Origin: Dehalococcoidia bacterium | Lineage (GTDB): Bacteria > Chloroflexota > Dehalococcoidia > Lucifugimonadales > Lucifugimonadaceae | Length of the DNA stretch: 32,000 nucleotides | Assembly (NCBI GenBank): GCA_963664995.2 | Contig: OY761846.1 | Location: forward strand, 1,775,771 to 1,807,770 | Reading direction: 5' to 3' | Shown here: one piece after another, positions 10,129-26,187 of the stretch | Layout of the letters: every line of letters begins with the position of its first letter | How positions within the stretch are numbered: position 1 is the stretch's first letter | Program-made: the position numbers and the translations under genes | The notes under the pieces: model-generated | The model's input: only the letters and a program-made list of their open reading frames with translations | What the model was told of the DNA's origin: nothing | Databases searched by the model: none

Positions 10129-10370
10129 TGGGTTCGTAACTCTCTAGCCTTGGACACTGTGCTAAACGCTAGATTCTGATCTAATCCAGCCGCCTTATCA
10201 AGCACGTACTGATATTGGAAATGGTAACTAAAAGTTCCCGATACTGCGTATCATACCCTTACCATTACTACTGCGTCAAACGAGATGGTCTTGGTGGCGG
10301 AATCGGTTCATGGATACGGCTCTCTTTTTGGATTGCATCGTAATTTCCCCGCAAGATTGTTGCTTAGCGT

Positions 10371-10376
10371 TATAAT
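10371..10376 (+). promoter_or_regulatory. Candidate -10 box (perfect TATAAT) in the divergent PKS / RdhA-like intergenic region
   Basis: TATAAT lies 38 nt upstream of the ATG at 10414. I found no convincing TTGACA-like -35 at 16-18 bp spacing, so this is weak. Confidence 0.2.
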
Positions 10377-10413
10377 CCGCTTCAATACTTGCGCGCAAGT
10401 CAAGGATATCGAG

Positions 10414-11661
10414 ATGAGTAAGTCAGTACACCACGTCGTAACTCGCCCCGGACGGAGGCATGGCGACGCTGAAACGTCAATACCGGTCGCCGAAGATTTG
10501 GTGACGGTGCCAGGGTCTCCAACAATCGATGGTGATGTTAGCTATTACAGCCGAGAATATCCCGTCGAAAGCCAGACCGTTGAGAAGTCGGCAGATCGCG
10601 AATGGGGTTGGACAGTCTACATTAAAGAGGTTTACGACTACCGCAAGAAGCATGACGAGGTGAGTGAACCTCTGATCGAGGCGGCCGCGGTATCTGGCGA
10701 TCATGACCCCACGACAGAGCCGGAAGCGGGGCGAGATGTCACGGAAGAGGTCCGCACAAAGGCTCGCGAGTTGGGTTTCGGCGAGGTTGGATTCACAAGG
10801 TATGACCGACGTTACACCTATCAGAGCAAAAAGCCGTGGGCGAAGTTCAACCACGCGATCTGCTTGGCGTTGGAGCAGGACTACTACCAGACCCAGACCA
10901 TCCCTAGCCTTGAGGCAGAATTCGCACACTTCGGCACCTACGAGATCGCCGGTGAACTCGCCCTCAAACTCGCCGAACACATCCGGTCCCTCGGATACCA
11001 CGCACAAGTCCACAGCCCGAACGACAACAGCGGCGTGTTTATTCCGCTTTTCGTGAACGCGGGATTGGGGCAGCTAGGGGCTAATGGTCAACTACTATCG
11101 CCTCATTTCGGGTCGCGGGCTCGCCTGATGATGGTCACCACCGATGCGCCAGTTACATACGACGAACCGGTTGATTACGGCATCAACAAGTTTTGCGAAC
11201 AGTGTCAGGTTTGTGTCGTGCGTTGCCCTGCCAGAGCATTGCTTCGTGAAAAGGTTTGGTACCGTGGCGTGCAGAAGAACAAGCTTGTATATGACCGATG
11301 CCGCCCGATAATGGTCACTTACGAGGGATGTGCGGTATGCATGAAGGTTTGCCCCATTCAGCGTTACGGGATGAAGCCGGTGATGGAGCATTACATCGAG
11401 ACTGGTGACATCTTAGGCAAAGGCACGCCGAACCTCGAAGGATACGAGCTTCGCGACAAGGGTTACTTCGGTCCGGGGGAGCTGCCTCACTTTGACCGTG
11501 AGACTTTTGAGTTTCCACATGGCACTAAAGAGGAGTGGTTGTTCGAGAAGTTCAAGGAAAAGCTAGAGGACAACGGTGCACCAGAGGCTGAGGAAGCTGT
11601 GGAGTTTGCAGATGAGTTGACGCGTCTAGTGAAGGCTGGCGTGTCGCGGACGGACGAGTAG
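10414..11661 (+). CDS. Reductive dehalogenase / epoxyqueuosine reductase (RdhA/QueG) superfamily Fe-S protein, cytoplasmic type
   Basis: The C-terminal half has the superfamily pattern AGLGQLGANGQLLSPHFGSRARLMMVTTDAPVTYDEPVDYGINKFC. This is followed by two ferredoxin-type motifs, CEQCQVCVVRCP (CxxCxxCxxxCP) and CRPIMVTYEGCAVCMKVCP (Cx9CxxCxxxCP). The upstream segment ELGFGEVGFTRYD...AICLALEQDY...IRSLGYHAQ also fits. There is no hydrophobic Tat/Sec leader. I moved the start from the ORF-track 10285 to ATG 10414, which has AAGGA about 10 nt upstream. Confidence 0.65.
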   Translation: MSKSVHHVVTRPGRRHGDAETSIPVAEDLVTVPGSPTIDGDVSYYSREYPVESQTVEKSADREWGWTVYIKEVYDYRKKHDEVSEPLIEAAAVSGDHDPTTEPEAGRDVTEEVRTKARELGFGEVGFTRYDRRYTYQSKKPWAKFNHAICLALEQDYYQTQTIPSLEAEFAHFGTYEIAGELALKLAEHIRSLGYHAQVHSPNDNSGVFIPLFVNAGLGQLGANGQLLSPHFGSRARLMMVTTDAPVTYDEPVDYGINKFCEQCQVCVVRCPARALLREKVWYRGVQKNKLVYDRCRPIMVTYEGCAVCMKVCPIQRYGMKPVMEHYIETGDILGKGTPNLEGYELRDKGYFGPGELPHFDRETFEFPHGTKEEWLFEKFKEKLEDNGAPEAEEAVEFADELTRLVKAGVSRTDE

Positions 11662-11712
11662 GAGCAACCAGAATCGGTTTTCGATTCGCGTAACGCGTTT
11701 GAAGGCAACACG

Positions 11713-11901
11713 ATGTTTGAGAAGGCTGCACTGGATGCTCTGTTTGGCGAGTTAGAGGTTAGCTACGGCGGTTCTGGAGATTACGGCCAGCTCTTGCGCG
11801 ATGCACATCTCGGCATCGCACTGTCTGACGCTGGGAAGGATTTGGGATCGGAACTCGACTCTAGGGTTGTGGATCTGATCGAAAAGCACAGAGTTGGGTA
11901 G
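11713..11901 (+). CDS. Small acidic hypothetical protein (62 aa)
   Basis: The ORF lies 52 nt after the RdhA-like stop, with GAAGG about 8 nt upstream of its ATG. I recognised no motif, so it may not be a real gene. Confidence 0.3.
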   Translation: MFEKAALDALFGELEVSYGGSGDYGQLLRDAHLGIALSDAGKDLGSELDSRVVDLIEKHRVG

Positions 11902-12126
11902 ATTACGATATTTGATGATTCGTTGTTGGCTTATAGATGCCCCGGTCAGCGTGCCTCGATCCAGCCCCCTGCCACGAACTCGGAGCGCACTCGTGCCTCA
12001 TTGACCTGCCAGTGTCCGACAATGGTTTGCAACGGGCGCGGTCGGATGGTTACGCCTAGACATTAGATTTGAGTTCTGCTATGGTGTTTGCAATCACTCG
12101 GCGGCAAGCCAATCTCGGAGGATAGG

Positions 12127-13158
12127 ATGTCGGTCAAGCTCTCTGGTCTTTTGAAAGACGCGCAACAGAATGCCGATGTTGCTGACACTCTTAGCAAGTA
12201 CGAGAATGGCTTCGAGAAATCCAAATTCGGGAAGATTGGGGGAGATGATGAAACGAGCGAGTTCAAGGATGTCAACAACCACTACTATGACTTGGTTACG
12301 GATTTCTACGAATTTGGCTGGGGAAGGTCATTTCATTTTGCCCCACGCGTACCTGGCGAGAGTTTCGCTGCATCGCTAGCTCGCCATGAACACTACATCG
12401 CGCACATGCTCGGCCTGGGTCCAGGGATGGTGGCGGCTGACTTAGGTAGCGGTGTTGGCGGGCCTATGGTGGAGATAGCTCGCTTTTCCGGTGCTCGGAT
12501 CGTGGGAATAAACAGCAACGAGTACCAGATCGAGCGTGCTCGAAAACTCAGCGAAGGGGCAGGGCTGTCTCATCTGACTAATTTCTTGCACTGCGACTTC
12601 CATAATGTGGATGCTCCGGACGACTCGTTTGACGCGGCATTCTCGATCGAGGCGACGTGCTGTTCGTCGGACAAAGCCAGAATATACAGCGAGGTCTATC
12701 GCCTTCTTAAACCGGGCGCTTGTTTTGCTGGTTACGAATACTGCTTGACGGATCGGTACGACGCGAGTGATCCTTACCATGTGAAGATCAAGTCCGACAT
12801 CGAGCTAGGTGGTGGTCTGCCCGATATCGCCTATAGTCACGAAATTGACGAGATTCTTAGAAGCGTGGGCTTTGAGGTATTGGAAACGCGAGACCTAGCG
12901 GAACAATCGGGTCCGTCGGTGCCTTGGTATTTGCCATTGGCCGGATCAGGACTATCATTTGCGAGCTTCCGCAGCTCATCGGTCGGGCGGTTGGTCACGC
13001 AGAGCTCATTGCGAGTGCTAGAAACACTGCGGATAGTGCCTCGAGGAACGGTGCGCGTTTCGAAAACGTTGAATCTTGGCGCGGATGCGATGGTCGAGTC
13101 GGGCCGGCTGGGCATCTTTTCGCCGATGTACTTCGTCCACGTCCGCAAACCGCTGTAA
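12127..13158 (+). CDS. Sterol 24-C-methyltransferase (ERG6/SMT) family SAM-dependent olefin C-methyltransferase homologue
   Basis: It is collinear with the SMT signature regions as I recall them from yeast ERG6 and plant SMTs. YYDLVTDFYEFGWGRSFHF matches region I (YEYGWGSSFHF). ADLGSGVGGP is the SAM motif. SIEATCCSS matches IEATCHAP. RLLKPGACFAGYEY..TDRYD, IELGGGLP and PWYLPL also align. The C-terminal GIFSPMYFVHVRKP matches the Sterol_MT_C ending. The start is set at ATG 12127, with GGAGGA 5 nt upstream; the ORF-track TTG at 12088 is less likely. Confidence 0.85.
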   Translation: MSVKLSGLLKDAQQNADVADTLSKYENGFEKSKFGKIGGDDETSEFKDVNNHYYDLVTDFYEFGWGRSFHFAPRVPGESFAASLARHEHYIAHMLGLGPGMVAADLGSGVGGPMVEIARFSGARIVGINSNEYQIERARKLSEGAGLSHLTNFLHCDFHNVDAPDDSFDAAFSIEATCCSSDKARIYSEVYRLLKPGACFAGYEYCLTDRYDASDPYHVKIKSDIELGGGLPDIAYSHEIDEILRSVGFEVLETRDLAEQSGPSVPWYLPLAGSGLSFASFRSSSVGRLVTQSSLRVLETLRIVPRGTVRVSKTLNLGADAMVESGRLGIFSPMYFVHVRKPL

Positions 13159-13196
13159 CGCAGCCGATGACGGCGTTACATATCTGCGGGTTGAAA

Positions 13197-13271
13197 TGGT
13201 GGAGCTGACGGGATTCGAACCCGTGACTTCCTGCTTGCAAAGCAGGCGCTCTCCCACTGAGCTACAGCCCC
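13197..13271 (-). tRNA. tRNA-Ala (anticodon UGC), CCA encoded
   Basis: The reverse complement folds by hand into a cloverleaf. It reads GGGGCTG TA GCTC AGTGGGA GAGC G CCTGC TTTGCAA GCAGG AAGTC ACGGG TTCGAAT CCCGT CAGCTCC A CCA. It has the G3:U70 alanine identity pair and TGC centred in a 7-nt anticodon loop. Confidence 0.95.
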
Positions 13272-13325
13272 ATAGTTTGAGTCTATAATCGCTTAAAAGA
13301 CCACTGATTCGAGAAAGCTCACTAC

Positions 13326-14765
13326 ATGAAAACAACGCAACACGACCTCCAGATGACACCGGATCAGATGCTGGATCTCGCACACATGGCGGCGGAGCTT
13401 CTGGTGGAACGCGTAGAGAATATGTCGGAAGGAGACGCTTGGGACGGTGAGTTCCGCGAGGGGCTAGAGGACTTGCTGATGGAGGACCCGCCTGAGGCAG
13501 GTCGACCTGCGAAAGAAGTCCTGGACCGAGTATCTCGCGAGATTCTGCCCTACGCTGCACGGCTCGATCACCCTCGATTCTTTGGATTCATCCCATCTTC
13601 ACCCACCTGGCCAGGCGTAATCGCCGATTTCATAACTGCCGGGTTCAACATCAATGCGGTTACTTGGCTTACTGCAAGTGGACCGAGTCAAGTTGAGTTG
13701 GTCGTCACCGAATGGTTCCGGCGCTGGATCGGCTATCCAGAAAGTGCCGGAGGGCTATTCACAAGCGGGGGGTCAGTTGCCTGCATCGATGCCTTCGTCG
13801 CGGCGCGCGAGGCAGCCGGCAACCCAGAGCGCGCTACGGTCTACATGAGCGACCAGAGTCACATTGCGCTGAACCGAGCCGCAATGATCATAGGTGTTCG
13901 ACCCGAGTGCGTCCGCGTGATCCCGAGCGACGAGAACTTTCGCTTAGACATGGCAGCCCTTGAGCGCACCATGACCGACGACCGCGCCGCGGGCTTTAAT
14001 CCCATGATCGTGAATGCAAATGCAGGAACAGGCGTAACTGGTGCCATTGATCCACTTCAAGCCATGGCCGATTACTGCGAGTCGGAAGATATATGGCTAC
14101 ACGTAGACGGGGCGTATGGTGGATTCGCAGTCGCGACCGAGAAGGGAAAAAGGTTGTTGCAAGGAATCGAACGCGCCGATTCTGTAGGGCTCGACGCACA
14201 CAAATGGTTCTTCCAACCCTACGAAGCCGGTTGCCTGATGGTCAAAGACGCCGACACCCTCGAGAAGCCATTCGGGATTAGACCAGACATTCTCCAAGAC
14301 ACAATATGGGGCGCAAACCACCCGAACTTCGGTGATCGGGGACTCCAGATCAGCCGCTCATTCAGGGCGTTGAAGGTCTGGATGTCCGTCCAAACCTTTG
14401 GCATGGCCGCGTTCCGTCGCGCCATTTCGAACGGAATGGAACTGGCACTCCAGGCACAGGAATATGTCCAAGCCAGTCAGGTTCTCGAAATGATGAGCCC
14501 CACATCGCTGGGAATCGTGTGCTTCAGGGTGAATCCCGAGGACACCAAGCTCGACGAGCAAGTTCTGGAGAAGATAAACAGGATAGTGCTCGCTCGCGTC
14601 TTCTGGGAAGAGCCGGCACTCTTCTCGTCGGCGCTTACTAAGGGGACATTCTCTCTCAGAATCTGCATCCTCAACCACACGACGGCTTGGGAAGATGTGC
14701 GCGACACCCTAGAAGCCATTGAACGATTCGGCAGGGAGGCGCTAGCTACAGAGGCTAACGCTTGA
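13326..14765 (+). CDS. Group II pyridoxal-phosphate-dependent decarboxylase (aromatic-L-amino-acid / tyrosine decarboxylase-like)
   Basis: HPRFFGFIPSSPTWPGVIADFITAGFN is the family N-terminal signature. SGGSVACIDAF also fits. DAHKWFFQPYEAGCLMV contains the PLP-lysine DxHKW motif. Size is 479 aa. Confidence 0.85.
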   Translation: MKTTQHDLQMTPDQMLDLAHMAAELLVERVENMSEGDAWDGEFREGLEDLLMEDPPEAGRPAKEVLDRVSREILPYAARLDHPRFFGFIPSSPTWPGVIADFITAGFNINAVTWLTASGPSQVELVVTEWFRRWIGYPESAGGLFTSGGSVACIDAFVAAREAAGNPERATVYMSDQSHIALNRAAMIIGVRPECVRVIPSDENFRLDMAALERTMTDDRAAGFNPMIVNANAGTGVTGAIDPLQAMADYCESEDIWLHVDGAYGGFAVATEKGKRLLQGIERADSVGLDAHKWFFQPYEAGCLMVKDADTLEKPFGIRPDILQDTIWGANHPNFGDRGLQISRSFRALKVWMSVQTFGMAAFRRAISNGMELALQAQEYVQASQVLEMMSPTSLGIVCFRVNPEDTKLDEQVLEKINRIVLARVFWEEPALFSSALTKGTFSLRICILNHTTAWEDVRDTLEAIERFGREALATEANA

Positions 14766-14774
14766 ATTGCCGCG

Positions 14775-15092
14775 CTACTGATCTCTCTCAACGTCGAGGT
14801 TCGAGCATATCCTAGCGATCGTCTTGGCCTGCGCGAGGTCTGGCGCATGGTTTTCGGACACGCCAGCGAACCCGGAGAGCATCGAGGCTGCATCGCCATG
14901 CAATCTAGCTACGACGACTGGCTGACCCAAGATAACTTGCCAAATAAGGGCAGCTGCAGTGTCGTCAAGCTATACGGTCTTGCTCAAATCCAATATGACA
15001 ACTTCATTAGCCGCTCTATCACTCCGCAAGACCCTCGCAATTTCGCGGGCTGATGCCACGGATATCGTATCGGGCAATATAACGAGTCCCAC
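14775..15092 (-). pseudogene. STAS-domain (anti-sigma-factor-antagonist-like) gene remnant with in-frame TAG
   Basis: Hand translation of the minus strand from GTG at 15092 gives VGLVILPDTISVASAREIARVLRSDRAANEVVILDLSKTV. A TAG follows at 14970-14972. The frame continues as LDDTAAALIWQVILGQPVVVARLHGDAASMLSGFAGVSENHAPDLAQAKTIARICSNLDVERDQ and ends at TAG 14775-14777. The pattern vv.LDLs.v.f.D..a...l...g..vv.a.l......l...G matches SpoIIAA/STAS topology. The stop falls where the conserved hydrophobic residue before the D(S/D) position would be. A further stop lies just upstream at 15099-15101 and there is no ATG. Confidence 0.3.
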
Positions 15093-15137
15093 TCGTGACT
15101 AGTAGAGGGCCTTGCAAAGCTCATACGAGAGTAAGGG

Positions 15138-15165
15138 TTGTAAATTGCGCGATTTTCGGTATCAT
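15138..15165 (+). promoter_or_regulatory. Candidate sigma70-type promoter for the lipoprotein array (TTGTAA-16 nt-TATCAT)
   Basis: The hexamers lie at 15138-15143 and 15160-15165, 20-30 nt upstream of the L1 start candidates. This is a pattern match only. Confidence 0.2.
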
Positions 15166-15185
15166 TCACAGAGATTGAGGGCAGT

Positions 15186-15791
15186 TTGCTATCGATGCTT
15201 GCAGCGTTCCATAAAAAGCTCGGATTCCTCGCGACGATAATGATGGTCGTCGCTTTTTGCGTTGCGTGGGTGTCGTTGGCGTGCGGCAGTGCTGACGGGG
15301 GCGATGGTAATGACTCGGAGTTGGAGTTTCAGCAAGTGATGGATATCGGGACAACTTTTTCGCCTGACCATCTCGATGGCATCGGTTTCAAGAAATCTCG
15401 TAGCTATGATCTCGAAGGATTGCCCGGAGCCAGCGAAGCAATATTCGGTTTCTGGCGCATCGCTTCAGGAGACCCGATCGATTACGAGGTGCGTTTCTAT
15501 GCTAGTCACTCAGACGCGGTGGAGTTGGGAACTGAACTTGCAGAAGAAGGATCGGGTGCTGATGCCGTTCTCGACGCGGATGATGCGAAATACAAAGAAG
15601 GTGTCAAAGACCGTCGGATGATCGTGGGATCCGGCATCGGCGGCGGGGCGCGTAGCGGCACGGGGCCGCGATATGGTTCGTATGCGATCTACGGCAATGT
15701 GGTAATGCTCTGCGGAGGTGCCGCTGGCGAGCAGGCACTTGATCGGTGCGAAGAGCTTGCGAATGCTTTGAAAGGAACCGAGGGCGAGTGA
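15186..15791 (+). CDS. Lipoprotein, unrecognised tandem-paralogue family, member L1 (2-Cys type)
   Basis: Signal peptide ending VSLAC|GSADGG, followed by an acidic G/D/S tether. Family core: YEVRFYASH, AEEGSGADAVLDADDAKYKEGVKDRR, YGSYAIYGNVVMLC-x11-C. The start is ambiguous: TTG 15186 has GAGGG 4 nt upstream, and ATG 15195 is the alternative. Confidence 0.8.
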   Translation: MLSMLAAFHKKLGFLATIMMVVAFCVAWVSLACGSADGGDGNDSELEFQQVMDIGTTFSPDHLDGIGFKKSRSYDLEGLPGASEAIFGFWRIASGDPIDYEVRFYASHSDAVELGTELAEEGSGADAVLDADDAKYKEGVKDRRMIVGSGIGGGARSGTGPRYGSYAIYGNVVMLCGGAAGEQALDRCEELANALKGTEGE

Positions 15792-16342
15792 TGGGCAAGG
15801 TGAGTTGGATGATTTTCGTATGTCTGCTAGGCATCGTCATTGTCGGTTGCGGTGGCACAACTAACGACGCCTCCGAAGATTCTGAGGATTCGAGACAAGA
15901 TGCAGAATCCCGAGTTTTAGACAGAGAGCAGATTATATCGTCCGATGACCTAGTCTCTCTGGGAATGAAATCGGGTAAGACTTACGATGTCTCGACACTG
16001 CAGGGCGGAGTCGAAGCCGGGTTGCTTTATTGGCGAGTCAACGATGTCGCGGTGGAGTACGAAGCGCGGTTCTATGCTTCGCATGATGATGCGGTAGCAC
16101 TCGGCACTGCGCCAGCGGAAGAAGGAAGCGGAGAAGACGCGATCATCGATGAGGATGTGGCGGTATATAAGGAAGGGATCCGAGACCGCAGGAAGGTTTT
16201 CAAATATCCAAATTCAGTGCTGAAACCAAAATACGGCGCGTACGCGATCTACGGAAACATGGTCGTTCTATGTGAGGGAAAAGACGATGCAGAGGGGTGG
16301 AGTAGATGTTCAGCGCTGACCGACGCTCTCGATAATCGATAA
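15791..16342 (+). CDS. Lipoprotein, same family, member L2 (2-Cys type)
   Basis: ATG 15791 overlaps the L1 TGA by 1 nt (TGATG). Signal peptide MGKVSWMIFVCLLGIVIVGC|GG. Core: YEARFYASH, AEEGSGEDAIIDEDVAVYKEGIRDRR, YGAYAIYGNMVVLCEG-x-C. The ORF-track start 15746 lies inside L1 and is rejected. Confidence 0.85.
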   Translation: MGKVSWMIFVCLLGIVIVGCGGTTNDASEDSEDSRQDAESRVLDREQIISSDDLVSLGMKSGKTYDVSTLQGGVEAGLLYWRVNDVAVEYEARFYASHDDAVALGTAPAEEGSGEDAIIDEDVAVYKEGIRDRRKVFKYPNSVLKPKYGAYAIYGNMVVLCEGKDDAEGWSRCSALTDALDNR

Positions 16343-16360
16343 AGGTCGGAACACGTCGGC

Positions 16361-16927
16361 ATGAAATTGATCGGAGTATTCAAAGGTCTCATTGCGCTTT
16401 CATTGCTTTTCATCGTGTTGGCGATGGCTTGCGGATCAAACGATGGAGGCGGAGGCGGTGCTGGTGTCTCAGACTATTCAGAGGTTGAGTCCGATACTAG
16501 GATATTCGACCGTGAGGCTACGCTCTCAGTTGACGATCTGCTCTCTCTCGGCTTGAAATCTGGCAAGAAGTACGACGTTGAAGACCTTCCCGGAGCCGTC
16601 GCCAACCGCGTCTTCTTCTGGCGTATAGACGATATCTCCGTCCAATACGAAGCCCGGTTCTACGAATCCCACGCCGCCGCAATAGAATTCGGACCTGGCC
16701 TTGCTGAAGAAGGCAGCGGTGAAGGCGCGATCCTCGACGCCGATGATGCGGTATACAAAGAAGGCGTCAGAGACCGCCGAACAGTGTTCGACTTCCGGGG
16801 TACGCCAAGACCGAGATACGGAACCTATGCCATCTACGCAAACATGGTCGTACTCTGCGAAGGCCGCGACGATGCCGAAGCTTGGGACCGTTGCACCGCG
16901 TTAATTGAAGCGCTCGACAATCGATGA
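16361..16927 (+). CDS. Lipoprotein, same family, member L3 (2-Cys type)
   Basis: Signal peptide MKLIGVFKGLIALSLLFIVLAMAC|GS, followed by a poly-Gly/acidic tether. The core is roughly 60 percent identical to L2 by eye: YEARFYESH, AEEGSGEGAILDADDAVYKEGVRDRR, YGTYAIYANMVVLCEG. Confidence 0.85.
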   Translation: MKLIGVFKGLIALSLLFIVLAMACGSNDGGGGGAGVSDYSEVESDTRIFDREATLSVDDLLSLGLKSGKKYDVEDLPGAVANRVFFWRIDDISVQYEARFYESHAAAIEFGPGLAEEGSGEGAILDADDAVYKEGVRDRRTVFDFRGTPRPRYGTYAIYANMVVLCEGRDDAEAWDRCTALIEALDNR

Positions 16928-17478
16928 AGCCAGCAGTTGCTTTAATTCTCTTGCTCGCAATCGCCGTGATGTTGCTCGCGTGCGGCAGTCAACCAGTTGC
17001 AGAAGAGTTAGCCGAACCCGAGGACGTAGGCCCGCAAACACAACTCATTAGACCAACAGATCGGACGTTTGGAATCGTAGACTTCGAAACCGCTGGACTA
17101 AAGCACTCTAAGAACTACAAGACTGAGGGATTGCCGGGCGCAACCAGAGTTTCGCTTTTCTTTTGGAAGGTCGATGGGACGCCAGTGCAGTACGAGGTGC
17201 GTTTCTATGCCTCACATGGTGAAGCTGTAGGATCAGGTTTGTCGTATGCGAAAGAAGGTGCGGGGCCAGATGCGATCATCGACCCGGATTTCGCCCGCTA
17301 CACGGAAGGGCTGCGTGATCGTCGTACTATTGTGCACACTCGCGGATCGCCGACACCTCGCTACGGTGATTTTGTAATCTATGGCAACATGATTGCGCTA
17401 TGTGAGGGGCGTGATTCGATGCAAGGATCAGAACGATGTGGGCGTTTGGTCAAGGCTTTGGATACGGCCAATCATTGA
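16924..17478 (+). CDS. Lipoprotein, same family, member L4 (2-Cys type)
   Basis: Its start overlaps the L3 stop in an ATGA. Signal peptide MKPAVALILLLAIAVMLLAC|GS. Core: YEVRFYASH, AKEGAGPDAIIDPDFARYTEGLRDRR, YGDFVIYGNMIALCEG. Confidence 0.85.
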   Translation: MKPAVALILLLAIAVMLLACGSQPVAEELAEPEDVGPQTQLIRPTDRTFGIVDFETAGLKHSKNYKTEGLPGATRVSLFFWKVDGTPVQYEVRFYASHGEAVGSGLSYAKEGAGPDAIIDPDFARYTEGLRDRRTIVHTRGSPTPRYGDFVIYGNMIALCEGRDSMQGSERCGRLVKALDTANH

Positions 17479-17626
17479 GGATGGAGACATTCCGAGTTTT
17501 AACCAGCATCCTCCCGCTTTTCTGTTTGACGAATTGAGTAACATATTTAATCAGTACCCCCAGAAGCGTCGAAGCGCCGCGATGGTTGTGTCACGGCGGC
17601 AACTCAAGTCCAAGGAGAAGGAAGAG

Positions 17627-18265
17627 ATGATACTGCGAAGATTTTCATGGCTCGGACTCCGCACGTTTGGGCTGGCAGTGTTGGTATCAACTCTGGCATT
17701 CGCTTTCGCGTGCGGCAGTGCGGACACAGATGAAGGTGATAGCGACAGCGGCGCTGGAGGCGCGCCGGCAGCAGCGGTGGAAGAAGCACCTAGTGGCCCG
17801 CCAGGCGTAGAGATAGTCTCGACGGACGCGATGTACACAGTTGACGATCTGGTCAACACCCCGAACTTCAAGAAGAGCAAGGAGTATAAGACCGAGGGGC
17901 TCGATGAAGCGACGGCGGCGATTTACGGATTTTTCGGACCTGATCCGTACGACCGTCAAGAGTTCGAGGCTCGGTTCTATCCCGATTACGACACCGCAAT
18001 TACCGTGGGAGTAGATTTCGCTGACGAAGCGACCGGACCAGATGCGGTCATAGCGAAAGATATCCAACGCTGGGACGAAGGATTGGTCCAGCGACGTGCT
18101 TGCTCAGGCAACACCCGCGGCTCGCACCACTCTGGCAAGTGCGACAACGCGAAATACGGCGACTACGTTGTGGCGGGCAATCTCGTGCTGCTTTGCCAAG
18201 GTAAAGATTCTGAAACTTCGCTTGCTAACTGCAATGATTTGATGGACGCGCTTCAATCGCAATAG
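17627..18265 (+). CDS. Lipoprotein, same family, member L5 (4-Cys type)
   Basis: The start is set at ATG 17627, behind AAGGAGAAGGAAGAG. Signal peptide MILRRFSWLGLRTFGLAVLVSTLAFAFAC|GS. Core: FEARFYPDY, ADEATGPDAVIAKDIQRWDEG. It carries an extra Cys pair, RRAC-x12-C, then YGDYVVAGNLVLLC-x11-C. The ORF-track start 17393 overlaps L4 and is rejected. Confidence 0.8.
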   Translation: MILRRFSWLGLRTFGLAVLVSTLAFAFACGSADTDEGDSDSGAGGAPAAAVEEAPSGPPGVEIVSTDAMYTVDDLVNTPNFKKSKEYKTEGLDEATAAIYGFFGPDPYDRQEFEARFYPDYDTAITVGVDFADEATGPDAVIAKDIQRWDEGLVQRRACSGNTRGSHHSGKCDNAKYGDYVVAGNLVLLCQGKDSETSLANCNDLMDALQSQ

Positions 18266-18293
18266 TGGTCGGTGTCAACCGCTGAAAACGGCG

Positions 18294-18953
18294 ATGTCTG
18301 TATACCAAGGATTGCTGGTCGCGTGTTTGGCTGCCTCCTTTAGCGCAATGGCGCTTGCATGCGGCAATGCTGATGAGGACAGCGGTTTGGACCTAGGAGA
18401 CTACGAGATTGTTGGGCGTACGCCTTTGGTCGCGCCAACTGCAACGGTGACACCAGCATCGGTCGCAAAGTCAGTTGATGTCGCAATTGAACGCAAAGTC
18501 CATATACGCTCGGCAGATGATCGTTTATCAATGATTGATTTTGAAACGCTCAAGAACTTCAAGCTGAGCAAAGAGTACGACGTTGAAGGATTGAGTAATG
18601 CAGACGCAGCGATATATGGTTTTTTCGGTCCTGATCCCTATGAGCGTCAGGAGTTCGAGATTCGTTTCTACCCGGATCACGCAACGGCTTTGGATGATGG
18701 CGTAGATTTTGCCAACGAGGCCACGGGGCCTGAGGCTGTAATTGCGAGTTCGGTTCAGCGATGGGATGTAGGCTTGAGCCAACGGCGAGCATGTGCGGGT
18801 AACACTCGCGGCTCGCATCATTCCGGAAGGTGCGACATAGCGAAATACGGTGATTACATGATCGTCGGCAATACCGTGCTACTATGCCAAGGTAAGGATT
18901 CGGAAAGTGCTCTGCATAACTGCGACGCGCTGTACGCCGCTCTGCTTCAATAG
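18294..18953 (+). CDS. Lipoprotein, same family, member L6 (4-Cys type)
   Basis: Signal peptide MSVYQGLLVACLAASFSAMALAC|GN. The n-region has no basic residue, which is slightly atypical. The core is close to L5: FEIRFYPDH, RRACAGNTRGSHHSGRC, YGDYMIVGNTVLLCQG. Confidence 0.8.
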   Translation: MSVYQGLLVACLAASFSAMALACGNADEDSGLDLGDYEIVGRTPLVAPTATVTPASVAKSVDVAIERKVHIRSADDRLSMIDFETLKNFKLSKEYDVEGLSNADAAIYGFFGPDPYERQEFEIRFYPDHATALDDGVDFANEATGPEAVIASSVQRWDVGLSQRRACAGNTRGSHHSGRCDIAKYGDYMIVGNTVLLCQGKDSESALHNCDALYAALLQ

Positions 18954-18979
18954 CGAGATTCAATCAGTTAGAGGTAACA

Positions 18980-19564
18980 ATGTCCGACACAAGCAATAGC
19001 AAGCTGGCCTACTCACTTGTGATTCTGATGGCATTGTTGGCATCAGCGTTGATTCTCGCAACAGGCATCGCGTGCGGCAGTTCCACGGGAGACGGCTCCA
19101 ATGGAGAAGCACCAGCCGAAGGTGGAGCAGATCCGAGGATACGCAACACGGAGGGGATGTACACCATAGACGACCTAAAGGCAGCGGGCGTTAAGGCGAA
19201 CAAGGATTATGATGTCGAAGATTTGCCGGGAGCGGATGCGGCTTGGAGGATCATCTTTAACCGTCTCGACTACGAGGTTCGTTTTTACCCTGATCACCAG
19301 ACGCTTTTGGATGAGGGTATACCGTATGTCGAGCACGTAACTGGGGACGATGCGGTGGTGATCGGCGATGACGTTATCTGGGAAGAAGGCGCGAAGGATC
19401 GTCGTCGTTGCAGCCGAGACGCTGATACTCCCCACTCAGGATGCTCTTATTCGCCGCGCTACTGGGATTATGTCGTGGTGGGCAACATGATCATGATGTG
19501 TGAGGGACTTGAAAGCAAGCAGTCGATCGAGAACTGCGACAATTTGCTCGCTGAGTTGGAGTGA
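18980..19564 (+). CDS. Lipoprotein, same family, member L7 (4-Cys type, divergent)
   Basis: AGAGG lies upstream of the ATG. The signal peptide ends LATGIAC|GSS. Core: YEVRFYPDH, TGDDAVVIGDDVIWEEGAKDRRRC-x10-C, YWDYVVVGNMIMMC-x11-C. Its stop is 5 nt from the convergent yhhQ-like stop. Confidence 0.8.
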   Translation: MSDTSNSKLAYSLVILMALLASALILATGIACGSSTGDGSNGEAPAEGGADPRIRNTEGMYTIDDLKAAGVKANKDYDVEDLPGADAAWRIIFNRLDYEVRFYPDHQTLLDEGIPYVEHVTGDDAVVIGDDVIWEEGAKDRRRCSRDADTPHSGCSYSPRYWDYVVVGNMIMMCEGLESKQSIENCDNLLAELE

Positions 19565-19569
19565 CGAAG

Positions 19570-20340
19570 TTAGCGTCGGGCAGTCCATCGGGCAGACCAA
19601 AAACGGGCAGCGTTGGCATCCGTCTCGTAGGATTTTCCGAAGATCCCTAGGGGGTTCAAATCTCTTGGATCGTCGAAAATGTCGATCTGCTCGCGCCATT
19701 TGAGATTGTTGACGATCAGGTATACCAAGGGTGTAGCGGCTATTTCGTAGAGAGTTTTGACTATCCATCCGAGAATTGCGCCGTTGATTGCGGCCTCCCA
19801 TCCCCAGAGTCCTGAAAGCCCGAACGCGATACCGTAGAAGAGGAACGAGTTTACGCCCTGTGCGACAAACGTGGACGAGATTGTCCGCAACCACAGCATC
19901 CTGCCGTTAGTTCGGTTCTTCAACGTCACCATAACGATGGCGTTGGAGAACTCCCCAATCGGATATGACAATAAACTGGCTCCAGCAATCCACGGTGTCG
20001 CACCTAAGATCGCTTCGTATGCAGACTGGTGACCCCAGAAATCAGCACCGGGCAATGCACCGACCAAAAAGATGAAGACGGTGAGCATAAAACTGCACGC
20101 CAATCCGAGCCAGATAGCACCGCGGGCGACCCGGAATCCATACACCTCCGTCAAGATATCGGAGATTATGAACGTGATCGGGAAACAAATAACCGATGCC
20201 GAAACGACGACGAGGTTGCTGCCCAAAAACTCGAACGGCAACTCGAGCAGCGTGACTGGCTTCCCCGAGATTGTGTTTGAAATTATGTATGCCGCGACCG
20301 AGAACGCGATGATGACTACCATTGGCCCGGAAAATCTCAA
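19570..20340 (-). CDS. yhhQ: YhhQ / VUT (DUF165) family transporter, queuosine-precursor-transporter-like
   Basis: A polytopic membrane protein with family motifs FIISDILTEVYGFRVARGAIW and WLRTISSTFVAQGVNSFLFYGIAF. The TTG start at 20340 has AGAGGGA 8-9 nt upstream. The alternative ATG at 20322 has no SD. Confidence 0.75.
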   Translation of the reverse strand: MRFSGPMVVIIAFSVAAYIISNTISGKPVTLLELPFEFLGSNLVVVSASVICFPITFIISDILTEVYGFRVARGAIWLGLACSFMLTVFIFLVGALPGADFWGHQSAYEAILGATPWIAGASLLSYPIGEFSNAIVMVTLKNRTNGRMLWLRTISSTFVAQGVNSFLFYGIAFGLSGLWGWEAAINGAILGWIVKTLYEIAATPLVYLIVNNLKWREQIDIFDDPRDLNPLGIFGKSYETDANAARFWSARWTARR

Positions 20341-20485
20341 TGGCTATCCCTCTATTCCCGTCGGTTTCATGGCGTAGTTTCTCTACTCACATAATCCGCG
20401 TTGATGTTCTCCAGCTATGCCCACACAACCTCTTTACGCCATCTTTAGACATGAAAGTACCAACACGGAGTAATCGCATTTTACT

Positions 20486-21022
20486 TCACTGGTTACCGCT
20501 TGTCGATTCAACCGATTCTACTAGCGAAACGCAATCATCAGTCGAGACTTCGCACATCATAACGAGGTTTCCGACGACGAGGAATCCGCCGTATACCCTG
20601 CGACTAGCGAACCCCGATCCGTCGTGTACGACGCGCTCTAAAGCGTCTTGAGCCGAAGTCACGCCTGAAGCCATCGCGTCTTCATGTGAGGTGTAACGAC
20701 GGATCTCTACATCTTTGCGATTAAAGAAACCGTAGCGTGCCTCAAGCGCATTTGGCAGCGTGTCAACATCGTAAATCTGGTACTGCTTCCAGCCGGCAGC
20801 AATGAACTCTTCGTATCCGAACTCCCGCTTAGGTCGCGTCCAAGCGCTTATCTCCACTCGATCCCCTATCGCGATAATCGCCGTCTCATCAATCGCCTCT
20901 GTATTGTCAGACCCACCATCTTCCGAAGCATCGCTACCACATCCGACCACGACCATGACTACGATCGGGACCACAATCGCTGGCCAAGACCGTTTCACGA
21001 GAAAACCGAAGAATCGCTTCAT
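20486..21022 (-). CDS. Lipoprotein, same family, member L8 (short, C-x6-C type)
   Basis: Signal peptide MKRFFGFLVKRSWPAIVVPIVVMVVVGC|GS. It retains YDVDTLPNA, FGFFNRKDVEIRRYTSHEDAM and YGGFLVVGNLVMMCEVSTDDC. It lacks the DA-I-D...EG..DRR segment. Confidence 0.8.
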   Translation of the reverse strand: MKRFFGFLVKRSWPAIVVPIVVMVVVGCGSDASEDGGSDNTEAIDETAIIAIGDRVEISAWTRPKREFGYEEFIAAGWKQYQIYDVDTLPNALEARYGFFNRKDVEIRRYTSHEDAMASGVTSAQDALERVVHDGSGFASRRVYGGFLVVGNLVMMCEVSTDDCVSLVESVESTSGNQ

Positions 21023-21543
21023 TGGGCGATCTGCTCCAAAAGATCGGTACAGTCGGTAACCGAGACTTCACACAACATCACTGTGTTACCAGCGACAACA
21101 TAAGCACCATACAAAGTCACACTGGAAAATCCCGCACCCCTGCCTGACAGCTTTTCAGTTTCGATCGCCGTCTCCGCAGAATCCGTGCCAGCAGCCATAG
21201 CCACGTCGTGCGATGGATAAACCCGTATCTCGATATCCTTGCGATTGTAGAAGCCAAAGTACGCACCTGTCGCCTCAGGCAAAGTATCCAGCGGCCACTC
21301 CTTGTTCTTCTTCCACCCCGCCTCGATGAAATCATCAACAGTGAACACGCGGCTCGGCCTCGTGTAAGCCCTGAGTTCAGCGCGGTCACCGATGGTTACA
21401 ACCGCGTTCTCGTCGACCGCGACAGCAGGGACACCCTCCGCTTCACCCGCCGGTTCGTCACTTGCACTGCCGCAACTAATTACAAAGCCGGCAACCACAA
21501 AAAATAGCAGTGGAACGAAGATCGATTTTGCATTGATTGACAT
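21019..21543 (-). CDS. Lipoprotein, same family, member L9 (short, C-x6-C type)
   Basis: Signal peptide MSINAKSIFVPLLFFVVAGFVISC|GS. Core: FTVDDFIEAGWKKNK, LDTLPEA, FGFYNRKDIEIRVYPSHDVAM, YGAYVVAGNTVMLCEVSVTDC. Its stop overlaps the L8 start in an ATGA on the minus strand. Confidence 0.8.
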   Translation of the reverse strand: MSINAKSIFVPLLFFVVAGFVISCGSASDEPAGEAEGVPAVAVDENAVVTIGDRAELRAYTRPSRVFTVDDFIEAGWKKNKEWPLDTLPEATGAYFGFYNRKDIEIRVYPSHDVAMAAGTDSAETAIETEKLSGRGAGFSSVTLYGAYVVAGNTVMLCEVSVTDCTDLLEQIAQ

Positions 21544-21742
21544 GATCCGGTCCCGATACAGTGTCGCTGGATTAAGCCTATCCTAACCCATCCCGGTCAA
21601 GAACCGGGATCAGCGCAATCGGCGGTTCAGACTTAAACGCGTCAAAGCGGCCGAACCCGGTTTACCAGATTCGACCGCTTCTTATCAACTTGGGTTGTTT
21701 GGTTGCCGATGTCGTTACGGCAACCGAATCAACTCAGGCTGG

Positions 21743-23671
21743 TTAGCTCTTCTCAAGCTGGTGAATGACCAGTGACCAGGTCAAGTGCCACCATGCCTCG
21801 TTAACGTAACCAGTCACGTCAAGAGCACCGACAGAGGCATCGCCTTGCGGCCAGTTCGTCCATCGCGCCTCGTTCATGATGATGCGGTGGTAGAACTCGA
21901 GGATCGGTACGTCCGGCAACTCGGTCAGCCAGATCTTGGCTGCCTGCCGCCACAGGTCGTACATCTCAGCCGTGTTGTCAGGCGAAGTCTTCGCGACCTC
22001 GTCCGTCAACGTGTCCCACTCTTCGTTTTCCCAGTGGTAGAAGTTCACCTGGTGACCGCCCGGAATGTTCACAGACGATGACTGGTAGAGCTTCATCGTG
22101 AAGTACGGGTCACGGACAGAACCGCCGTGTCCGAACATCAGGCATTCGAAGTTACCTTCTGCCATTCTGCTGGAGGCATCGGTCGGCTGACCGTAGTCGG
22201 CCTGGATGCCGTGGTTCACGAGCTGCTGTGCAACTGCGGGGCCAAGGTCAACCCATGGGTTGAAACCGACGATTTCACAGTTAACCGTGTTACCACCAGA
22301 GTCTTCCCACATACCGTCGGCGTTCTTCGTGAAGCCAGCGCCTTCCATCAACTCGTCACCGCGGTCCGGGTCGTAGTCGAGAGTAGAGCGTCCGATCTCT
22401 TCCATCACCTCGGTTGCAATGTCGAAGTATGGCTGGAGCGGCGGATACTGCGGCATCGTCAACGGGTTGAATGCCGCGGCTCCGTCATACGCAAGCTCGC
22501 GGAGCTCCGCACGGTCAAGGTAGAACGAGATCGCCCAGCGAACATCCGGGTTGTCGTACGGACCGAACTTACCGCTGGTGTTGAATGCGATAGATACCGG
22601 CCACCAGTCGACATAGCCGTAAGGCTCGCCACGACCGGAGTGCGTAACGAGGTCTTCGTTCTGATCAAGCGTCTCAGCAATTAGCGACGGAGTAGTCATT
22701 GCCGCGCCGTCGACCTGGTCGTTTATCAACGCCTGAGCACGCTGCTCTTGCGGAACGCCAGGGATGTAGATGATCCGCTTGACACGCGGCAGACGACCAT
22801 AGTCGCCCAAGTCGGCAACTCCATCGCCCCACCAAGAGTCGCGGCGGTCAAAGATCTTCTGTTCGGTCGAGGTTGTTACCTGCCACGGACCGGTCGAGAG
22901 CGGCCAGCCCTTGTCGCGATCGTAGTCGCCGAACGTCGTCCAGTCGCGGCCCTCGTAGTGGTGCTGAGGAACGATATAGACACCAATGTCGAACTTGTAG
23001 GTCAGGAGGAAGAAGAAGCGCGGGTCCGGGCGGAGCAGGTTCACCTTCGCGGTGTACTTGTCAACCAGTTCAGCGTTGTCCATCGCGGCGTCAACGTCCT
23101 TGCCCCAACGAACTTGCTCTTTGAGTTCCTTGAGGGTGTTCAAGGTGTAGACGACGTCTTCGCAGTCGAAGTCTTCGCCGTCGCTCCAAGATATTCCCTC
23201 ACGGCAGTTGATAGTCAACTCCGTGAAGTCATCGTTGTAGCTGTAGTCCTCGGCTAGCCACATGATTTCCTCGTCTGCGAAAGCGGAGAAGAAAGCCAGC
23301 GGCTCAAAGATGAGGTTCGGACCTTGCTGGTGGTTTGCACCAATTGCGTACGGGTTCCAGAGTTCGTGGTCAATGAAACGACCTTCCGAACCGCCGTGGA
23401 ACAGGGTAAGAGTATCTTCAGCAGCGACATCGCCTGGATCGAAGACGACGCCTTGGGCTTCCGCAGGTGCTGGAGGCTCGGTCGGTTCTGGTTCGGGCTC
23501 GGGAGTCGCCGTGGGCGGGACCGCGGTCGCGGTCGGCGGGACAGGCGTCGCAGTCGGCTCTTCCTCGCCACAAGCGATGATGACGCCAAGCACCATCACG
23601 CTCGCAAGGACTGCCAACAAACCGTATCGCCCTAGTTTGACAGGGAGGTTCATTGTCTTTTTATTCCTCAT
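21743..23671 (-). CDS. ABC transporter substrate-binding lipoprotein, family 5 (peptide/nickel, Opp/Dpp type)
   Basis: The signal peptide ends VIIAC|GEEEP, followed by a Pro/Thr/Glu linker. After that comes a body typical of SBP family 5 (FEPLAFF...WLAEDYSYNDDFTELTINCREGISWSDGEDFDCEDVVYT). A second possible start is ATG 23653, with GAGGAA about 12 nt upstream. Confidence 0.85.
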   Translation of the reverse strand: MRNKKTMNLPVKLGRYGLLAVLASVMVLGVIIACGEEEPTATPVPPTATAVPPTATPEPEPEPTEPPAPAEAQGVVFDPGDVAAEDTLTLFHGGSEGRFIDHELWNPYAIGANHQQGPNLIFEPLAFFSAFADEEIMWLAEDYSYNDDFTELTINCREGISWSDGEDFDCEDVVYTLNTLKELKEQVRWGKDVDAAMDNAELVDKYTAKVNLLRPDPRFFFLLTYKFDIGVYIVPQHHYEGRDWTTFGDYDRDKGWPLSTGPWQVTTSTEQKIFDRRDSWWGDGVADLGDYGRLPRVKRIIYIPGVPQEQRAQALINDQVDGAAMTTPSLIAETLDQNEDLVTHSGRGEPYGYVDWWPVSIAFNTSGKFGPYDNPDVRWAISFYLDRAELRELAYDGAAAFNPLTMPQYPPLQPYFDIATEVMEEIGRSTLDYDPDRGDELMEGAGFTKNADGMWEDSGGNTVNCEIVGFNPWVDLGPAVAQQLVNHGIQADYGQPTDASSRMAEGNFECLMFGHGGSVRDPYFTMKLYQSSSVNIPGGHQVNFYHWENEEWDTLTDEVAKTSPDNTAEMYDLWRQAAKIWLTELPDVPILEFYHRIIMNEARWTNWPQGDASVGALDVTGYVNEAWWHLTWSLVIHQLEKS

Positions 23672-23792: not shown

Positions 23793-23808
23793 GTCAACAA
23801 CAGTTGAC
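23793..23808. promoter_or_regulatory. Candidate operator: perfect inverted repeat GTCAAC-aaca-GTTGAC in the divergent SBP/permease intergenic region
   Basis: The palindrome is read directly at 23793-23808. Related GTTGA(C/T) half-sites occur at 23821-23826 and 24022-24027. No regulator gene is visible in the window. Confidence 0.3.
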
Positions 23809-24022: not shown

Positions 24023-25105
24023 TTGACAACCACCGCAACCCGGCGGAACAACCCCGCTCTTAACACCAAGCCAAACTCAGCCGTAGCGTTCATCGCGGCG
24101 TTTTTCGGCAACTTCATCGTCCAGAGATTCCTCCTCTTCTTATTGACTGTGTGGGTCGCCGCAACGGTGATTTTCATCCTGCCCCGTTTAACCGGACAAG
24201 ACCCGGTCAAGGAAAAGCTGCTACTTGAAGCTCAGCGGGGAGGCTCTGTTCAAGCCGGGATGAACGAAATGGCCAAAGAGTACTCCGCGAGACTCGGACT
24301 CGACTTGCCCATTCAAGAGCAGTACATCAACTACATGACTGACCTCGCCCAGTTGGATTTCGGATATTCCATCGCTTACTTCCCCAGAACAGTCAATGAA
24401 ATCATCTTGGATTCGATTGTCTGGTCGATCGGACTGATGACCGTGACGCTCTTTTTGGCCTTCGTTCTAGGCACTGGTGCTGGCGCGCTATTGGGTTGGT
24501 CGCGATCACCAGGCTGGTTGAGCTACGCCTTTATGCCATTGCTCACTCTTTCCGCCATACCGCAGTACATGCTCGGCCTGGTCCTTATGTTCATCTTCGC
24601 TATCATCCTGAACTGGCTACCATTTTTCGGTGCCTATAGCCCCGGAAATCTACCGGAATGGAGCCTGGGCTTTGTACTCGACGTCCTGAGACACGCCATC
24701 CTACCCGCACTGGCGATACTCTTCTCCGCGGTCGGTTTTTGGGCCATTGGCATGAGAGGCATGATGATCAACACACAAGGCGAGGATTTCATGATCCAAG
24801 CCGATGCCAAAGGTCTTAACGGCACTCGGATTTTCGTCCGCTACGCCATCCGCAACGCCTTACTGCCACAGGTAACCGGACTAGCAATCTCATTCGGCAC
24901 CCTACTCACTGGCGCCGTTCTCGTAGAGGTGCTGTTCCAGTACCCGGGTCTCGGCAACACCCTTTTCTATGCCATTAGAGTGTCCGATTTCTTCCAGATA
25001 ACCGGGATCGTGATGACCATCATCATCTCGCTGGCGATGGCCACTATGGTGGTCGATTTGGTCTATCCGCTGATCGATCCACGCGTCAAATATACGCAGA
25101 GCTGA
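24023..25105 (+). CDS. ABC transporter permease (DppB/OppB-like)
   Basis: N-terminal FIVQRFLLFLLTVWVAATVIFILPRLTGQDP matches the DppB-type TM1 and PGDP-like motif. It has multiple TM segments and a C-terminal VVDLVYPLIDPRV. The only in-frame start after the upstream stop at 24008-24010 is TTG 24023. Confidence 0.85.
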   Translation: MTTTATRRNNPALNTKPNSAVAFIAAFFGNFIVQRFLLFLLTVWVAATVIFILPRLTGQDPVKEKLLLEAQRGGSVQAGMNEMAKEYSARLGLDLPIQEQYINYMTDLAQLDFGYSIAYFPRTVNEIILDSIVWSIGLMTVTLFLAFVLGTGAGALLGWSRSPGWLSYAFMPLLTLSAIPQYMLGLVLMFIFAIILNWLPFFGAYSPGNLPEWSLGFVLDVLRHAILPALAILFSAVGFWAIGMRGMMINTQGEDFMIQADAKGLNGTRIFVRYAIRNALLPQVTGLAISFGTLLTGAVLVEVLFQYPGLGNTLFYAIRVSDFFQITGIVMTIIISLAMATMVVDLVYPLIDPRVKYTQS

Positions 25106-25112
25106 TAATCAT

Positions 25113-26159: not shown

Positions 26160-26187
26160 CCGTAATCCTCAGCGACAAAACTCCAGA

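Follow-up and report, generated by a model that had tools for sequence, protein, structure and literature searches.

Here, we show that a stretch of 32,000 nucleotides (nt) from a Dehalococcoidia bacterium (assembly GCA_963664995.2, contig OY761846.1, positions 1,775,771 to 1,807,770; hereafter the window) carries nine paralogous genes of the DUF6810 family (PF20650, function unknown) at positions 15195-21543; that this locus is an array of DUF6810 lipoprotein genes is close to certain. The array is ancient and vertically inherited, the cores of its products are under strong purifying selection, and its one robust genomic association is with a neighbouring ATP-binding cassette (ABC) importer. 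Four old subtypes make up the array: A (L1-L4), B (L5-L6), C (L7) and D (L8-L9). As to function, the most plausible reading, which rests mainly on the conserved importer linkage, is that DUF6810 proteins are tethered surface ligand-capture or receptor modules serving solute uptake, a proposal that we put forward with low confidence.

A conserved array of DUF6810 genes

The Pfam model PF20650 matches nine of nine proteins (E 3.8e-14 to 3.3e-51) with scores of 53.2-173.3 bits, against a gathering score of 25 bits. In L8 and L9 the match is split in two by the deletion of a loop, and the structure model of L9 supports a common fold. Going by sequence, the nine genes are plain members of this catalogued family, whose definition covers neither the array organisation nor the four subtypes. 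The initial annotation could not place the core in any family it knew. The family is in fact catalogued, with a Pfam match for every one of the nine and homologues in many public metagenome-assembled genomes (MAGs), but the view that no function or characterised family accounts for these proteins has held up. The nine proteins match no NCBIfam or PADLOC model, a sequence-profile search of the PDB gave matches confined to the signal and tether region, and a Pfam scan of 95 aligned family members with E up to 10 returned no recurrent second family. The literature that we searched contains no publication naming DUF6810 or PF20650.

A profile search of 1.84 billion representatives at 50% identity returned 435 DUF6810 clusters at E ≤0.001, and at least 556 matches were found among 8000 scored candidates from a collection of 5.8 billion proteins, those listed being unnamed or called "hypothetical protein". 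All listed database homologues also fit PF20650 well above its threshold, some through a precomputed domain. Every named genome with a match belongs to the Chloroflexota, and as far as sampled the family is restricted to SAR202/Dehalococcoidia within that phylum. With L1 as query against one genome per GTDB species, 20 loci were retrieved, all of them titled as Dehalococcoidia, Dehalococcoidales, SAR202 or Chloroflexota/Chloroflexi MAGs and nine of them lying on chromosome-scale contigs of 2.25-2.83 Mb. Copies were counted by a family hidden Markov model over the six-frame open reading frames (ORFs) of the loci. The same layout, five to seven copies on one strand and then two on the other, is present in 14 MAGs, and no fewer than 14 Dehalococcoidia species have the array in a version with 7-9 genes. 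NP954 has five copies, and OSU_TB34 and NAT172 have one each. Among 80 more loci from marine metagenomes, 54 hold one copy, 17 hold two and a few hold up to seven, interspersed with other genes; the marine-metagenome locus L100 contains a complete nine-gene array. Arrays of 7-9 genes are thus present in many public MAGs. A hunt for fusions across the 435 representative clusters found one apparently chimeric sequence and two longer lipoproteins, P0127 (391 amino acids, aa) and P0128 (404 aa), in which a Cys-rich N-terminal region of ~240 aa without a Pfam match precedes a subtype-B-like DUF6810 domain.

Within the window, L1-L7 lie at 15195-19564 on the plus strand and L8-L9 at 20486-21543 on the minus strand (ORF list for 14000-23000), in the places and orientations that the initial annotation had given, apart from three starts that we corrected. 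Signal-peptide logic and gene calls on near-identical public contigs move these to ATG 15195 for L1 (not TTG 15186), ATG 15791 for L2 (not GTG 15746) and ATG 17627 for L5 (not TTG 17393). The public calls agree on 198, 183, 188, 184, 212, 219, 194, 178 and 174 aa for L1-L9, the 198-aa call for L1 being found in locus L101 and the 212-aa call for L5 in locus L102. With the corrected starts the genes occupy 5217 of 6358 nt, and the earlier figure of 5.4 of 6.4 kb fits the longest possible ORFs.

Subtype A comprises L1 (15195-15791; PF20650 E 3.3e-51), L2 (15791-16342), L3 (16361-16927; the first to be modelled) and L4 (16924-17478), with lipoboxes SLAC-GS, IVGC-GG, AMAC-GS and LLAC-GS, respectively. 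It is followed by subtype B, L5 (17627-18265) and L6 (18294-18953), in which an additional pair of Cys flanks a conserved TRGSHHSGKC loop; L6 has the longest tether (61 aa). L7 (18980-19564), the one member of subtype C, carries an extra Cys pair in an ADTPHSGC loop. Subtype D is found on the opposite strand, with the short-cored L8 (20486-21022; PF20650 53 bits) and L9 (21019-21543; 66 bits). Several genes overlap: L2 starts on the stop codon of L1 (1 nt), and L3/L4 (ATGA) and L9/L8 share 4 nt each; the remaining intergenic gaps in the array measure 18-148 nt. Between the two strand blocks lies a gene that the initial annotation did not mention and that accounts for the ~0.8 kb left unexplained. 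It encodes a Vut_1 (YhhQ-type) membrane transporter (19570-20340, minus strand; PF02592 E 8.7e-46) and is not a member of DUF6810. Since only some orthologous arrays have it (those of L001, L004, L007-L009 and L100, not those of L002, L006 and L010-L014), the Vut_1 gene looks like an optional insertion into the array and not an array component.

Tethers, cores and predicted fold

All nine proteins begin with a signal peptide of 20-32 aa that ends in a lipobox, [hydrophobic]x2-[AGS]-C and then G. The lipobox was tested with a regular expression of the PROSITE PS51257 type ([LIVMFWSTAG]2-[LIVMFYSTAGCQ]-[AGS]-C, with the Cys ~15-35 residues from the start), which finds a bacterial-lipoprotein signal in nine of nine, with the Cys at residues 20-32. 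Homologues in related loci pass the strict pattern in 128 of 137 cases; among the nine that fail, seven have a near-lipobox Cys, one is a fragment without its N-terminus and one has a poorer VVCG site. Neither lgt nor lspA is among the genes of the window. The tether, taken as the stretch between the lipobox Cys and the final 118-135 residues, has a length of 27-61 aa, is rich in D, E, G and S, and has an isoelectric point (pI) of 4.1-4.4; AlphaFold predicts residues 5-21 of L3 to be disordered (predicted local distance difference test, pLDDT, <50). The core of 118-135 aa is a compact alpha/beta domain with a pI of 4.3-4.8, except in L4, where it is 7.1. The shared build that had been described for the array, a lipobox signal peptide, an acidic tether and a globular core, is thus found in every member. 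SAR202 genomes are without peptidoglycan synthesis genes (PMC6306507), and the DUF6810 products are predicted to be lipid-anchored on the outer face of the sole membrane.

The nine proteins can be aligned along their whole mature length, with pairwise identities of 26-68%. Thirteen columns are invariant: the C-G of the lipobox, one K and one L (N-terminal core half), the E, R and Y of E-x-R-x-Y, one each of G, Y and N, two Cys near the C-terminus and a further L. The three collinear motifs picked out in the initial annotation are a fair description of these columns. One polar set is common to all subtypes, namely K, E-x-R-x-Y, a near-invariant H, Y and N, and distant free-living forms with a single copy retain the invariant residues as well.

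For L3 and L9, AlphaFold models predict the topology beta-alpha-beta3-alpha-beta2(4)-alpha. The L3 model (AlphaFold2, md693874c0b14) has a mean pLDDT of 81, with most of the core >90. It consists of a helix (34-39), three strands (43-47, 56-66, 69-78), a second helix (81-95), a loop (96-118) that is conserved but of low model confidence, four further strands (119-122, 125-128, 130-136, 139-144) and a final helix (148-163). L9 (mf91ef51dec02; pLDDT 87.9, predicted template modelling score 0.84) follows the same plan minus the long loop and with a single C-terminal hairpin, beta-alpha-beta3-alpha-beta2-alpha. In these models the E-x-R-x-Y motif is placed on the third main strand, alternating with hydrophobic residues, and the near-invariant His opens the long helix. 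The family-invariant Cys pair has one residue in the last strand and one in the C-terminal helix, which suggests a disulfide staple. Alignment of the two domain halves with hhalign revealed no internal duplication.

A Foldseek search of 350,542 PDB chains gave no match at E ≤0.001 for the L3 or the L9 model. The best alignments are to N-lobes of protein kinases and pseudokinases (best E 0.096, template modelling (TM) score ≤0.35), and weak ones are to the extracellular sensor domain of PknH (4esq; E 0.34, TM 0.36) and to YbjN. The order of elements in the kinase N-lobe (beta1-3, helix C, beta4-5) and in the alpha-beta3-alpha-beta2-alpha arrangement of type III secretion chaperones and YbjN is that of the DUF6810 models; at E ≥0.096, TM ≤0.36 and identities of 7-17%, this is a resemblance of topology and no evidence of kinship.

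Subtypes, importer linkage and possible roles

The five-copy genome NP954 has L1-like, L5-like, L7-like and L9-like copies, and four old subtypes are therefore distinguished. They differ in loops that are conserved within each subtype. In subtype D the loop that links helix 2 to the final hairpin is deleted, which shortens the core, and the invariant set is kept. L1 corresponds to the form that is widespread in SAR202 as a single copy, as free-living single-copy genes match it best, at ~48% identity. Array slots in 14 other species are 58-91% (mostly 65-90%) identical to the same slot here, with the next-best paralogue at ~38-72%, a margin that vanishes through overlapping values in the W5/W6 and W2/W3 pairs. 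Given this slot-by-slot orthology, nothing points to concerted evolution or to recent turnover. The paralogues are saturated at synonymous sites (synonymous divergence, dS, undefined or ≥1.6), and the duplications must therefore be old, as had been argued from codon strings in L2 and L3, which we find exactly as quoted at 16058 and 16115 (L2) and at 16646 and 16703 (L3). Between orthologous cores, the nonsynonymous divergence (dN) is 0.03-0.24 and dS ranges from 0.5 to saturation, with a dN/dS of 0.03-0.14, and tethers evolve several-fold faster than cores. Purifying selection on the core with diverging tethers is thus borne out, and so is the retention and diversification of the paralogues, since loop sequences specific to a slot are conserved across 9-18 sequences per slot. 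The pattern indicates long-standing subfunctionalisation, not an arms race.

The gene upstream of L9, 199 nt away on the same strand, encodes a family-5 ABC substrate-binding protein (SBP; SBP_bac_5, 21743-23671, minus strand; PF00496 E 2.6e-45), itself a lipoprotein (lipobox IIAC-GE) with the same type of signal and an acidic tether of similar style; L9, L8 and then the Vut_1 gene follow on that strand. Running divergently from the SBP gene, an operon for an Opp-family ABC importer (24023-28310, plus strand) has two permease genes (BPD_transp_1) and two ATPase genes (each ABC_tran plus oligo_HPY) and is closed by an MR_MLE gene of the enolase superfamily (28696-29784, plus strand), whose product resembles acid-sugar dehydratases. 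The nearest solved relatives of the SBP are a mannoside binder of Thermotoga (4pfu, E 8e-27) and a chitin-oligosaccharide binder of Vibrio (1zty, E 1e-23), behind which nickel binders and the remaining peptide binders rank.

Wherever an array locus extends far enough to show them, SBP and Opp-type ABC genes lie next to the array (synteny of L001-L014 and L020), and NP954 also keeps this adjacency, its SBP being only 68% identical. In L011 and L012 (~4000-16700 in each) the permease-ATPase-MR_MLE block is found on the array side opposite the SBP gene, the MR_MLE gene moving together with the ABC genes, which fits an inverted array-plus-SBP segment with breakpoints that spared the cluster. In L016, a distant two-copy lineage, one unannotated gene and a distance of ~1.4 kb separate the DUF6810 genes from another SBP_bac_5 gene, which has permeases of its own. 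The 199-nt gap between SBP and L9 contains two hairpins with perfect 8-bp stems, ATCCCGGT-N5-ACCGGGAT at 21590-21610 and GGTTGCCG-N9-CGGCAACC at 21701-21725. Neither has a T-run after the stem, and behind the SBP gene they could serve to stabilise or attenuate the transcript. The divergent region between SBP and permease genes has a perfect palindrome (GTCAAC-AACA-GTTGAC, 23793-23808), which overlaps a -35-like TTGACA and is a candidate operator absent upstream of L1. No operator motif is common to this region and the region upstream of L1, no riboswitch or other RNA element was found upstream of the array or the ABC operon, and a scan for promoters and terminators gave a signal at chance level.

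In free-living SAR202 the neighbours are varied: transporters or binding proteins of the PBP_like_2, MIP and major facilitator superfamily (MFS) types, an ABC-2 membrane protein, sulfatases, an amidase, an amidohydrolase, NAD-dependent epimerases and a GlcNAc-2-epimerase. DUF6810 genes there are often translationally coupled to transporter or catabolic genes (ABC-2, MFS, sulfatase, epimerases); one ABC-2 membrane protein gene ends 30 nt upstream of a DUF6810 gene on the same strand. In locus L037 (4083-12052) DUF6810 genes flank a run of short-chain dehydrogenase/reductase, epimerase, amidohydrolase and ABC-2 membrane protein genes, after which comes an MFS gene, with a sulfatase gene opposite, and in locus L090 (4443-6795) a DUF6810 gene overlaps the downstream sulfatase gene.

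What could such proteins do? The ligand-capture reading, possible but tentative, builds on the invariant polar set, the adjacent subtype-specific loops and the linkage to uptake genes. The proteins would be lipid-anchored to the outside of the only membrane that these wall-less cells have, swing their cores on acidic tethers and act as small capture or receptor modules. The common polar patch would recognise a shared chemical group, with specificity tuned by the loops of each subtype. In the array clade the modules would serve the adjacent Opp-family importer, whose SBP resembles oligosaccharide binders and whose operon ends in an acid-sugar-dehydratase-type enzyme.

Several points weigh against this reading. 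The adjacency to the importer in the array clade could be inherited synteny and not functional coupling, and outside that clade the context signal is not above background: enrichment of MR_MLE genes near DUF6810 was rejected (0.034 per kb within 4 kb, 0.040 per kb farther away), the apparent surplus of sulfatase, MFS and epimerase genes is based on 6-8 genes each, which is too few, and there is no Opp system next to the single-copy gene of OSU_TB34. Classical substrate-binding proteins are all far larger than this domain, and the invariant E-x-R-x-Y may, in the models, be either surface-exposed or a buried salt bridge. To our knowledge, ABC importers have no accessory lipoprotein of such a kind. 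A bolder version, which we regard as unlikely, is that DUF6810 has an unseen fold and represents a new class of tethered accessory import receptors in wall-less Chloroflexota, whose four subtypes capture carbohydrate-like or acidic organic molecules for ABC and perhaps MFS transporters, and whose 7-9 copies mark a host-associated SAR202 clade. If true, this would add an accessory-receptor component without counterpart in known ABC import systems.

Could the array instead have a structural or organisational role? The four subtypes might form a fixed hetero-oligomeric layer or a docking scaffold, among themselves or with binding proteins, whose task would be, for instance, to organise or anchor an S-layer or pseudo-periplasm and not to bind small ligands. 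Across species the four subtypes recur as one set whose order does not change and whose dN/dS is very low, as is typical of proteins that form a single complex, SAR202 lacks peptidoglycan genes (PMC6306507) and so needs some other surface organisation, the cores are uniformly acidic apart from L4, and the varied neighbours in free-living lineages argue against one dedicated pathway. However, copy number ranges from 1 to 9 and single-copy genomes exist, so that an obligatory four-part complex is not universal; a polar set that is invariant across subtypes would be expected of a common binding or catalytic site more than of heterotypic interfaces; and no S-layer or anchoring gene lies nearby. 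On balance we consider such a role rather improbable.

The same polar set could also form an active site. DUF6810 proteins would then be small extracytoplasmic enzymes in which invariant K, E, R, Y, H and N residues modify or cleave substrates before import and the loops set specificity. These residues are kept from single-copy free-living forms through all nine paralogues, purifying selection is strong, and some members of DUF6810 are coupled to genes for breaking down carbohydrate-like substrates. Yet neither sequence nor structure resembles any enzyme family (Pfam, NCBIfam, PDB profiles, Foldseek), the domain has just 118-135 residues, and subtype D loses a whole loop while keeping the invariant set. 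In addition, the sulfatase in L037 has by inspection no obvious signal peptide, which suggests processing after uptake. An enzymatic role seems doubtful to us.

The initial annotation had also raised inhibition of host or competitor enzymes. That immunity, inhibitor or host-interaction lipoproteins are involved, neutralising secreted toxins or enzymes or engaging an animal host, is distinctly unlikely, even though the architecture is analogous to that of the tandem DUF576 (Lpl/Csa/TilA) lipoproteins of Staphylococcus aureus, which confer immunity to the type VII secretion system lipase TslA (PMC10730906), the largest arrays occur in MAGs whose names suggest sponge or coral sources, presumably their hosts, and subtypes B and C have His-containing loops bounded by predicted disulfides: DUF576 arrays vary fast in copy number and recombine (PMC10730906) whereas DUF6810 slots are stable and show no arms-race signature, the window has no toxin, secretion-system or defence gene and no PADLOC match, free-living open-ocean SAR202 also carry 1-7 copies, cells without peptidoglycan genes (PMC6306507) have no peptidoglycan to protect, and in the Foldseek search with the two models neither Ivy, PliC, BLIP nor any other inhibitor matched in fold. 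The remaining probability falls to something else.

The weight of these findings is limited by the facts that the family is already catalogued and that lineage-specific expansions of DUF families are common. What remains of interest is the conserved four-subtype organisation together with the importer linkage in an ecologically dominant uncultured group. Few bacteria are as abundant in the dark ocean and in sponge microbiomes as those of SAR202, and their uptake of organic matter is poorly understood. A clade-restricted, conserved, importer-tied family that is multiplied up to nine-fold and has no recognisable solved structural relative is a target for learning how uncultured cells meet their substrates.

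Elsewhere in the window, an ORF of >3375 aa on the minus strand (1-10128) runs off the window end and encodes a type I polyketide synthase (KS-AT-DH-cMT-ER-KR-ACP-KS-AT), called as two ORFs in the close relative L101. Its architecture resembles what we take to be the sponge-symbiont "Sup" polyketide synthases, which make methyl-branched fatty acids. It is followed by a gene for an iron-sulfur protein (10285-11661, plus strand) that has similarity to QueG and, below cutoff, to reductive dehalogenases (TIGR02486, E 3e-32) and is conserved upstream of the array in L003, L006, L007, L008, L009 and L014 at 82-87% identity. Closer to the array are a methyltransferase gene (12088-13158, plus strand) with a Sterol_MT_C domain (PF08498, 80.6 bits against a cutoff of 21.7 bits) and a tRNA gene (13200-13271, minus strand). 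The methyltransferase gene is variable, since in contig L101, the closest relative, its position is taken by a MacB-type ABC pair, and we saw no other sterol-pathway gene in the window. Sterol side-chain methyltransferases of unidentified bacterial sponge symbionts bear on the debate about the 24-isopropylcholestane biomarker (PMC10070321); here, a Sterol_MT_C methyltransferase sits on a chromosome of the Dehalococcoidia/SAR202 type.

Comparison with known systems

One comparison is with the SBP_bac_5 (cluster-C or family-5) proteins, which share with DUF6810 the type of export signal, the style of tether and the locus. In contrast to the two-lobed SBPs of ~500-640 aa, however, the DUF6810 core is a single domain of 118-135 aa without similarity to them: Pfam and NCBIfam give no match to an SBP family, and the models show a single small alpha/beta domain and no two-lobed fold. 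Likewise, Ivy, PliC/MliC, BLIP and DUF576/TilA gave no match in Pfam, NCBIfam, PADLOC or Foldseek (E ≤0.001), and no toxin gene is present in the window.

With regard to function, surface glycan-binding proteins (SGBPs) of the SusE/F type in Bacteroidota are non-catalytic lipoproteins, encoded as diverged paralogues beside an uptake system and catabolic enzymes, and are thought to capture substrate. They are outer-membrane lipoproteins built of beta-sandwich domains and feed TonB-dependent transporters. Here the likeness would be a functional analogy only, as DUF6810 is a small alpha/beta domain with a predicted anchor in the cytoplasmic membrane and an ABC neighbour.

In genomic layout, the array is most readily set beside the DUF576 genes of S. 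aureus, where many paralogous lipoprotein genes likewise stand side by side in a single-membrane bacterium. The DUF576 products are exposed on the outer membrane face (PMC10730906), and the same exposure is predicted for DUF6810. The two are unrelated in sequence, and DUF576 arrays are unstable in copy number, recombining and located next to a toxin gene (PMC10730906), whereas the DUF6810 array is positionally stable, strongly constrained and located next to an ABC importer.

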